Shown: piece by piece, positions 30,701 through 33,700 of the stretch
Position numbering within the stretch: position 1 is the first letter of the stretch
How the letters are laid out: every line of letters begins with the position of its first letter
Virus record (IMG/VR): IMGVR_UViG_2565956727_000003
Span: 1 to 36,978 of that record
DNA: 36,978 bases
Source: a virus
Lineage: Duplodnaviria > Heunggongvirae > Uroviricota > Caudoviricetes
Direction: 5' to 3' (one strand)
Made by a program: the position numbers

Positions 30701-33700
30701 AGCTTTCACGTACCACTCAGGCTGTTTTTCTATTTTCCAGTGATGCTTACCCACGATTAGCCTCATCGTTCTGTGGTTTCTGTTAATCGATTTATCCATT
30801 AGATTTTTCATAAAGCTCAGGTTTAAATGGCAACCGTCCGCAAGTTCTATATGCAGCTTCTGCTGCACGTCCTTTTGGAATTAACTGGCCCGGACGGTTT
30901 CGCCACTGATAAACGGCTTCAGTTGTTATGCCGAAAAAAGCAGCAACTTTCTCAATACTGCCGAAGTAGCTTTCGATATCGTCAGTTGTCATACGCCCTC
31001 CAAACTAAGTTTTGTTAGATGCTAATTACAAATCTATCTTTGGTCAATAAAAACTAAGATTACTTAGCAATTAAAGAAATGGTGCTCCTATGGAAACGGT
31101 TGGTCAGCGTATAAAAGCTCTGAGAAGAGTTACCAGAACGTCCCAGAAAGAATTGGGTAAATTTTGTGGAGTAAGCGACGTTGCTGTGGGGTACTGGGAG
31201 AAAGACATCAATACCCCTGGTGGGGAGGCACTTTCGAAATTAGCGAAGTTCTTCAATACGTCAATAGATTACATTCTTTATGGTGCTGAGTTTGAAGGCA
31301 AACTCGTCACAAACATGCGCAGAGTTCCTGTAATATCGTGGGTTCAGGCTGGGCAGTTTACTGAGTGCAGGGCAGCAGAAGTGTTTAGTGAAGTGGACAA
31401 GTGGGTAGATACATCATTAAAGGTTGGTGATAACTCATTTGCATTAGAGGTTAAAGGTGACTCCATGACTAACCCTAATGGCCTCCCAACAATACCAGAA
31501 GGCGCAACAGTGATTGTAGATCCAGATGCAGAACCTCGTCATGGAAAAATAGTCATCGCTCGACTTGATGGAACAAACGAAGCTACAGTAAAAAAATTAG
31601 TCATCGATGGCCCTCAAAAGTTTTTAGTGCCATTAAATCCTCGGTATCCCAACATCCCTATCAATGGTAATTGCCTTATCATTGGTGTAGTCAAAGGAGT
31701 TCAATACGAACTCTAAGACCTCTCTTCTCTAACTAAGGCACCGAACTAAGAAAAGTTTGGTGTTTTCTCTTGCCATAATAACTAAGTTAAGTTAGATTTT
31801 ATATCAAAGATAACGAACAGGCAGGACGCTCACGAAGTAGCCGCCTGGGGCATATGAAGTCCACGATGATTCGTTAGCAACAAAAAAGCGCCCTACAGGA
31901 CGCTTAGCTCTTTAACAATCTGGTCCCCATCAACAAGTAACTGATAACTTGAGGAGGTGTGAAATGCACAAAACAGAACCCAAAATCGTCGCGCCTGGCT
32001 ACACAGATGAGGAAATTTACGAGTGGATGACAAAGAAGCTGGCAGCCATAAACCAGCTTCGTGAATTGCTGTCTTATCGACAGGAAACAATAGGCTCCTT
32101 AAAAAAACTGGATCAGGAAATCACTGTTTTATCACAGGATGCTACTTTAGATATTGTGCAGACAAATTAGGATCCCATTCATTTTCGTCAAAATCATCAA
32201 AGTGATGAATTTGTGATCTCCAGTCTCGATAATCTAAAAATTTCTGGGCGGTTACGCTTATTTTATCAAGCGTGAGTTCATCCTGAATTGAAAGAAGAAG
32301 TTCATCAAATTTCATCTCATTAATCTGTTTTGGCATCCAGTGATGCTTCATCAGAATAAGGTGAACCAGAGCCTTTTTCCCATTCAACTGATTATAGGGA
32401 GTGCCGAATTTCTTCCGGTGCTCATGCAAGACAAGATCCAGAAGAGTAAGTAATGTTGCCCTTGATTCCACTTTACTTATTTCGACTGATGACACTACCC
32501 CACTGATTTCAATGCCCCGATACTTTCCAACATTTTCACAGTGGGATTTGTACAGCGTATAGATATTACCGGACATTTCTTTTCCTTTTGCGTTGTTGGG
32601 GATAACCAGATTAACCGAATCCTTGTTGTTGGGGAATAACCAGGTCCACCTCGCCTGATGTGGCTAAAAGCAGGCACATAACAGCTAAGTATTTTCAACC
32701 AGAGAGAATCCTTAGCGTTGTGGTGAATGCGGCTCAGCGCACGCGGGTTAAGGTTGAGGCTGACAGTCGACCTTCTGTGGATACCCACCCGCCTGGTGTG
32801 CAACCTTCGCCAGGCACCGGGAGGCACCCGGCACCACAACTTTATGCTGTGTGTAGTCTTGGCGGTACCAGCTTGTACCCTTGCTTCCGGCTGGTACCGT
32901 CCTTTTTACAAAACAGAGAAGAGCATCACCGGACGACGGGCTCATAACCCAATCCATCCGGGCGGCAGTCACCGCAGGTGTTCTTCTCTGTTTTGTGGAG
33001 AAACTAACCGACCTTGCAGGGTCGATATGATGAGGAGCAGCAAAATGGCTAGCGAACGCAGTACTGATGTGCAGGCATTTATCGGGGAGCTGGACGGCGG
33101 CGTATTTGAAACCAAAATCGGCGCAGTTCTCAGTGAAGTCGCTTCCGGTGTGATGAACACGAAAACCAAAGGTAAGGTCTCGCTCAACCTAGAAATCGAA
33201 CCGTTTGATGAGAACCGAGTGAAAATCAAACACAAACTCTCATATGTTCGCCCGACTAACCGCGGGAAAATTTCCGAAGAAGACACCACCGAAACGCCGA
33301 TGTATGTCAATCGCGGTGGTCGCCTGACTATTCTGCAGGAAGACCAGGGACAATTACTGACTCTTGCCGGTGGACCTGACGGAAAACTCCGCACAGCAGG
33401 TCGTTAATATCGTTTTTAATAAACTGATTATTCATCTTATCACTGAATATCTTTATATAGTGAGGACTTATTATGTCTCAGAACTTAGACGCAACCGCAA
33501 TTAATCAAATCCATGCCCTTATTTCTGCTCAGGGTGTTAATGAAATTATCAGTAAGATTGGTGCCGATGCTGTGGCATTGCCTGAGAATTTCCGCATTCA
33601 TGATCTGGAAAAATTTAATTTAAATCGCTTCCGTTTCCGTGGTGCGCTTTCCACTGCCAGCATCGATGACTTTACCCGTTATTCTAAAGATCTTGCAGAT

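Follow-up and report, generated by a model that had tools for sequence, protein, structure and literature searches.

What controls early-left transcription in a temperate phage in which the repressor gene is followed, with no rex genes between, by what looks like another copy of its operator? We addressed this question in the virus record IMGVR_UViG_2565956727_000003 of the IMG/VR database (Caudoviricetes), of which the whole stretch of 36,978 nucleotides (nt) is called the window below. An earlier note on this sequence had proposed that a third operator and a candidate early-left promoter lie immediately downstream of the cI gene. From comparison with related phages and prophages, we predict with good confidence that this SfV-like, CPS-53-like temperate phage has its left operator and early-left promoter (OL/pL) at positions 31735-31811. 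As an OL/pL, the region is ordinary for a common SfV-like prophage; the noteworthy by-product of the analysis is a conserved structured RNA leader, which begins directly after it and is followed by a boxA.

The region is 99% identical to Escherichia phages vB_EcoS-569R4 and vB_EcoM-689R6 and, beyond cI, its relationship with the Shigella phages SfIV, SfII and SfV is mosaic. The cI-like repressor gene (31090-31716, plus strand; stop codon at 31714-31716) codes for a protein of 208 amino acids (aa) with HTH_3 and Peptidase_S24 domains. Its C-terminal domain matches that of lambda CI (expectation value (E) 5e-28), and the VQAG, GDSM and KKL motifs align and are conserved. For the N-terminal DNA-binding domain, the nearest solved domain is that of P22 C2 (E 5e-10).

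Predicted operators around the repressor gene

The exact operator core CTAAG-N4-STTAG is found at three positions only in the window, 31005, 31054 and 31782, where 0.06 occurrences are expected, and none of 100 shuffled sequences equalled this number. The first two cores lie in the cI/cro intergenic region and flank the cro-ward promoter identified by the promoter scan (TTGACC-N17-TAGCAT, minus strand, 31047-31019). The predicted operator ACTAAGTTTTGTTAG (31004-31018), an exact match, is located directly 3' of the -10 of this promoter. The predicted operator ACTAAGATTACTTAG (31053-31067), directly upstream of its -35, is a perfect palindrome that matches exactly on both strands and is unchanged across 24 unique sequences of the same immunity. 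A further operator-like site with three mismatches (31029-31042) lies within the spacer of the cro-ward promoter, at the exact midpoint (24-25 base pairs (bp)) of these two perfect operators; it may be a weak central operator, and it hints at a lambda-like arrangement of three sites in the cI/cro region.

The third exact core is the operator that had been proposed to follow cI. The predicted main left operator, ACTAAGTTAAGTTAG (31781-31795), covers part of the spacer and the first three bases of the -10 of the promoter described below, and its 14-bp core is identical in every same-immunity locus recovered. The candidate second left operator, ACTAAGAAAAGTTTG (31745-31759), lies upstream of the -35 and carries one mismatch; its core, CTAAGAAAAGTTTG (31746-31759), is the sole one-mismatch operator site in the window, and reads CCAAG in two same-immunity variants. 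In relatives, too, an operator is found upstream of, or overlapping, the -35.

Two direct ACTAAG half-sites had also been noted after the cI stop codon. Both are present, at 31732-31737 and 31745-31750, and they fare differently as operator elements: the second is the left half of the one-mismatch site, whereas the first fits the operator with three mismatches at best, is missing from two diverged same-immunity relatives (L021 and L085), and is probably not an operator site. The word itself is not in excess in the window (seven copies observed, 9.4 expected); five of the seven lie within 31004-31786, around cI.

The segment directly after cI also contains a hairpin followed by a U-rich tract (31735-31766, plus strand; folding free energy -15.1 kcal/mol, z-score -3.1), and none of 200 shuffled sequences was as stable. 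A clear intrinsic terminator is found in relatives at the same position, directly after the repressor gene. The hairpin is probably the terminator of the cI transcript; the 31746-31759 site shares its centre, so that terminator and upstream candidate operator coincide in this phage. The claim that the promoter abuts the repressor gene without rex genes between them therefore holds, with this terminator hairpin in between; a promoter next to the repressor gene with no rex genes is common, as in HK022, SfV and ZF40.

The predicted early-left promoter and the immunity module

The predicted early-left promoter consists of TTGCCA (31770-31775), a 17-nt spacer and TAGATT (31793-31798), on the plus strand, with nine of 12 matches to the consensus. 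As described in the earlier note, the operator at 31781-31795 overlaps its spacer and -10. Transcription would start at 31804-31807 (plus strand), 6-9 nt beyond the -10. The promoter lies past the 3' end of the repressor gene, is oriented away from cI and cro and points to the integrase gene; the operators beside it have the same consensus as those of the cI/cro region, one of them overlaps the core promoter, and the whole is part of an exchangeable immunity module (see below). The 24 unique sequences of this immunity type all have the same operator core and the same TAGATT but differ in the spacer and in the -35 (TTGCCA, TTGTCA or TTGCTA).

Several points weigh against this assignment. The promoter hexamers are no better than chance (four promoter-like sites in 2.6 kilobases, 4.3 expected), and the -35, TTGCCA, is imperfect. 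The early-left side has only one exact and one near operator, not the three of lambda, and the symmetry of the upstream near-operator could come from the terminator hairpin. Transcription may also start separately at the small RNA region from 32687 and could add to the expression of the downstream genes. For this phage and immunity type, control of the promoter by CI is a prediction from the sequence. Because the hexamer match alone is not above chance, support for the promoter comes from its context and from comparison.

Homology to SfIV, SfII and SfV begins at about 31812, approximately 7 nt past the predicted start. The complete immunity region is present in 517 of the 5,426 complete E. coli genomes, whereas in a further 880 or so the match starts only at approximately 31812. 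This mosaic junction places the promoter and operator in the immunity module. The 119 IMG/VR loci that have the downstream sequence in common represent at least five upstream (immunity) types. Types B (SfV), D and E each have a clear -35 (TTGACN), a clear -10 and repeats of their own, and the spacing from these to the conserved leader is unchanged; the layout of promoter and repeats is less clear in type C. The promoter of SfV, for example, reads TTGACA-N17-TAATGT and is accompanied by GTACC-type repeats.

The same order (end of the repressor gene, terminator, operator, TTGACN -35, operator, -10 and then the same leader) is found in about 20 prophages of other genera, including Erwinia, Serratia, Kluyvera, Mixta, Phytobacter, Izhakiella, Kosakonia and others, and in phage ZF40. 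A promoter with its own operators is present at this position in at least five immunity types and in prophages of more than 10 genera. The promoter segment shares words with the sequence 600-1,000 nt upstream, beyond the repressor gene: 75 9-mers are common to both, against 10 in a downstream control of equal size. Among 221 unique contexts of the leader, 120 have a promoter with at least nine of 12 matches within 90 nt upstream of it, and in 112 of these 120 the -10 ends 11-24 nt ahead of the first leader helix, P1. In a similar run on 209 contexts, promoters of this quality were found in 114, against seven and 11 in two control windows. Together with the invariant operator core, the junction, the separate promoters of other immunity types and genera, and the shared repeats support the proposed combination of operator and early-left promoter.

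Alternative explanations

The best-surviving alternative is a real operator without a working promoter: the site after cI would be a looping partner for the cI/cro operators, or part of the cI terminator, and early-left transcription would start near 32680 or 33000. The chance-level promoter match is compatible with this, as is the small RNA encoded in that area. The region 32687-32910 (plus strand) matches the STnc100 family over the full length of the model (RF02076, 43.4 bits, E 1e-7); with the gathering score at 47 bits, it is a relative just under the threshold. STnc100-type RNAs are reported as expressed, and this one may be the counterpart of sRNA-17 of E. coli K1 strain RS218, which is expressed in a lysogen and the deletion of which raised yfdP about 95-fold (PMC7719688). 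Against an operator without a promoter stand the promoters that unrelated immunity types and genera have at this position, and the invariance of TAGATT. The promoter scan revealed no sigma-70-like site on the plus strand between 32580 and 33045, and a start near 33000, which the earlier note had named as the competing location, was dropped because no such site was found there. The small RNA, moreover, ends in a strong terminator before yfdP, formed by a 13-bp GC-rich stem and U5. We consider this explanation unlikely.

A second possibility is that the promoter serves an accessory gene, or 'moron', rather than the early-left operon. The first open reading frame (ORF) of the predicted transcript (31964-32170, plus strand) codes for 68 aa, is preceded by a strong ribosome-binding site, GAGGAGG, and belongs to PHROG 1744 (function unknown). 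It is part of a variable cassette, and a convergent gene and a hairpin come after it, so that a local promoter for this ORF alone can be envisaged. The promoter nevertheless travels with the immunity region and is the same ahead of the 68-aa ORF or of an SfV-type cassette, and relatives without an intervening ORF retain the promoter and the leader directly upstream of the yfdP region, which makes this reading very improbable. Least probable of all is that the ACTAAG repeats are due to chance or are by-products of the terminator hairpin, the region being merely the 3' end of the cI transcript: the 31746 site does share its centre with the hairpin and the 31732 copy is not conserved, but the exact 14-bp pattern is expected only 0.06 times and its third copy lies outside the hairpin, on the promoter.

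A structured RNA at the start of the predicted early-left transcript

Directly downstream of OL/pL, about 14 nt past the -10, begins a conserved structured RNA leader of 65 nt (31812-31875, plus strand), defined by covariation and by a covariance model. It is composed of three helices: P1 (31813-31817/31870-31874), P2 (31820-31822/31828-31830) and P3 (31844-31848/31861-31865). The 60 aligned sequences are diverse and were drawn from phage records, species-representative genomes and IMG/VR. In the three-helix model, 96.2% of the cells are standard pairs, and both sides have changed in 11 of the 13 pairs. The covariation score is 0.545, against 0.148 for shuffled alignments and at most 0.131 for slid controls. 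P1 has been replaced repeatedly and occurs as GCGAA/TTCGC, ACGAA/TTCGT, CCACC/GGTGG, TCATC/GATGA, GGAAC/GTTCC, GCAAA/TTTGC and GCGAG/CTCGC. An alternative pairing given by RNAalifold (CGAA at 24-27 with TTCG) is superseded by this full compensatory replacement of P1 in divergent sequences. The G-U wobbles assign the structure to the plus strand. The long unpaired stretches, CACGAAGUAGCC, the P3 loop GGCRUAYGAA and GAUGA, are near-invariant. It is very likely, in our view, that this is a genuine RNA structure under selection.

The covariance model scores 80.6 bits in the window and finds a single copy there. Neither blastn nor the unfiltered covariance model gave a second, right-operon (putR-like) copy in the window. 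The two copies of Salmonella phage 118970_sal3 stem from a tandemly duplicated record. Among the 5,426 complete E. coli genomes, about 1,400 have a match to the leader segment; the motif is also found in 39 plasmid records and in phages from many genera of enterobacteria. In Rfam 15, no family matched the leader at the gathering threshold or at E<=5, and it has no RNA annotation in any of the 49 phage records in which a consensus query found it. A search of the literature with the motif sequence gave only unrelated primers.

The motif also occurs outside the usual setting. In the lambdoid phage mEp237 (L158, 2440-2560), it follows an internal promoter in the early-left region upstream of kil. 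In T5-like Providencia phages (L185 and L236), it is located in the terminal repeat and is followed by CGCTCTTTAAAAA. Being present in mEp237 and in lytic T5-like phages, the motif is restricted neither to the neighbourhood of repressor genes nor to temperate phages. The copy in the window has two private substitutions (31830 and 31864) that are absent from all IMG/VR and other loci recovered, and at 31864, where G has become C, a C-C mismatch takes the place of a P3 pair. The leader sequence of E. coli LD91-1 is identical to the window copy.

A hammerhead-like core, to which the conserved GAUGA drew attention, was rejected: on inspection the helix order and the joining regions do not fit, and no Rfam ribozyme matched. 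A CsrA site is a weak idea based on two GGA triplets, one within the P2 loop and the other at the P3 base; there is no ribosome-binding site nearby, and the second GGA is missing in ZF40 and in L263.

boxA and possible transcription past terminators

Between the leader and the boxA lies a hairpin that has the form of an intrinsic terminator on the minus strand (31886-31905; eight pairs, then TTTTTTGTTGC) and probably ends the convergent 144-aa gene. The boxA, GCTCTTTAACAA (31907-31918, plus strand), is the sole exact copy in the window, about 100 nt past the predicted start, with this hairpin ahead of it. We take GCTCTTTAACAA to be the core of the rrn boxA. A boxA-like site is found 20-39 nt past the leader in 56 of 252 unique contexts (approximately 22%), against one and none in control windows.

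Neither boxC nor an N-type boxB was recognized around the boxA, and the hairpin beside it is presumably unlike an N-type boxB. None of the nine proteins scanned matched the N families. Of the lambda-type arrangement of an N protein and a boxA-boxB nut site, the boxA alone is present. The expectation that the promoter drives a set of first genes different from that of lambda was thus well founded: no N homologue was detected here, and the SfIV genome paper reports SfII, SfIV and SfV to be without homologues of N, cII and cIII (PMC3851460).

Because the STnc100-like RNA ends in a 13-bp terminator ahead of yfdP, early-left transcripts must pass an intrinsic terminator to reach the genes from yfdP to int. 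A tentative hypothesis is that the leader and the boxA represent a new class of cis-acting phage RNA that provides N-independent antitermination of early-left transcription. The leader could act directly on RNA polymerase, in a put-like manner, or a complex of host Nus factors could be nucleated at the boxA. If true, this would explain how the strong terminator before yfdP, xis and int is read through in SfV-like phages that lack N. As an alternative function, the leader may be a stabilizer of the 5' end or a site for another host factor.

Neighbouring genes

The 144-aa gene (32142-32576, minus strand; PHROG 5286, function unknown) is convergent with the 68-aa ORF and overlaps it by 29 nt. The two form a variable cassette, in place of which SfV has orf33, and neither has a Pfam or PADLOC match. 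The 144-aa gene is probably an accessory gene with its own promoter; its position is that of the exclusion genes in lambda. Downstream, the STnc100-like RNA has a weak DicF-like 3' part. The segment 32903-33040 (plus strand), directly upstream of yfdP, is non-coding and highly structured, with smaller hairpins nested inside an approximately 25-bp helix (z-score -6.1 for the fold of 32855-33050). The segment may be deeply conserved, since spurious ORF translations of it are found again in distant genera.

The conserved early-left genes occupy 33045-36978 (plus strand): a yfdP-like gene, yfdQ (DUF2303), a gene for an HD-domain protein, others and, last, the integrase gene, which begins at 35794 (plus strand) and reaches the end of the window. 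On the other side of cI, the minus strand carries genes for a replication protein, a CII (CP76)-like protein and a P22_Cro-like protein (30792-30992). The longest ORF of the CII-like gene (30197-30868, minus strand) overlaps the cro ORF by 77 nt. A phage record with 99% identity has two 'YmfL' pieces in this region, so the true start of the CII-like gene is probably further downstream.

Comparison with known systems

The arrangement resembles that of lambda OL/pL in its position downstream of cI, its direction away from cro, the operator consensus held in common with the cI/cro region, the operator over the promoter core, the operon ending in int and the cleavable C-terminal domain of the repressor. 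It differs in that one exact and one one-mismatch operator, 36 bp apart, replace the three adjacent operators classically found in lambda, rexAB are not present between cI and the operators, and the transcript opens with a structured RNA and then a boxA, with no N gene or N-type nut site found. The operators of P22 have 5-bp half-sites 4 bp apart, which is the geometry found here; the half-site is CTAAG in this phage and TTAAG in P22, and the C-terminal domain of the repressor is nearer to lambda CI.

SfV, SfII, SfIV and ZF40, which belong to the same phage family, have the same succession of cI, terminator, promoter with its own operators, 65-nt leader and variable genes, and in the three Shigella phages the order runs on to yfdP and yfdQ, as it does here. 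They differ in repressor specificity and operator sequence, and in their records terminator and operators do not coincide. In SfV, GTACC-N5-GRTAC-type repeats lie in the spacer and just past the -10, and the record annotates no left promoter and no leader. In HK022, the PL start is about 110 nt past cI, and this promoter is close to the repressor gene without rex, as in our window, SfV and ZF40.

HK022 and HK639 are also similar in having a structured RNA of approximately 65-70 nt, putL, just past the early-left promoter, no N, and terminators downstream. Antitermination by put is RNA-only and works through the zinc-binding domain of the beta-prime subunit of RNA polymerase. However, putL has two adjacent stems, whereas the leader has two hairpins within a closing helix, occurs here as one copy per phage and is followed by a boxA. 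Searches of the HK022 early region and of the complete HK639 genome with the leader model gave no hit at E<=1, and direct reading of both putL sequences gave no alignment; homology with put RNA was therefore rejected. The boxA of rrn leaders and lambdoid nut sites, where NusB-NusE is loaded, has in common with this locus the exact GCTCTTTAACAA and a hairpin ahead; here there is no recognized boxC or N-type boxB, and only about 22% of leader contexts contain a boxA.

A model for early-left control

From the observed sequence elements, their statistics and conservation, and the RNA covariation, we infer CI binding, repression, a start point and a role for the leader as follows. In the lysogen, the CI-like repressor bound to ACTAAGTTAAGTTAG would keep RNA polymerase off the promoter, and the weaker site at 31746-31759, upstream of the -35, would probably be bound cooperatively. 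After DNA damage, RecA would stimulate self-cleavage of CI, in which the Ala-Gly, Ser and Lys motifs of the S24 domain are present, and the promoter would be freed. Transcription would then proceed from about 31805 rightward in the window, towards xis and int. The transcript would contain, in order, the 65-nt RNA, the hairpin, the boxA, the 68-aa ORF, the STnc100-like RNA with its terminator, yfdP, yfdQ, the HD-domain gene and the integrase gene.

With this assignment, the immunity map is complete for an E. coli prophage type that is very common (about one in 10 complete genomes contain this exact immunity region), and a predicted repressor-operator pair of P22-like geometry is defined. The assignment also places a strongly covarying, unannotated RNA at the opening of early transcripts; roughly one in four complete E. 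coli genomes carries it, as do phages from many genera of enterobacteria, and the phage family in which it occurs here is reported to be without N. If this leader controls termination, RNA stability or translation, it would represent a general, so far unrecognized layer of early gene control in temperate phages.

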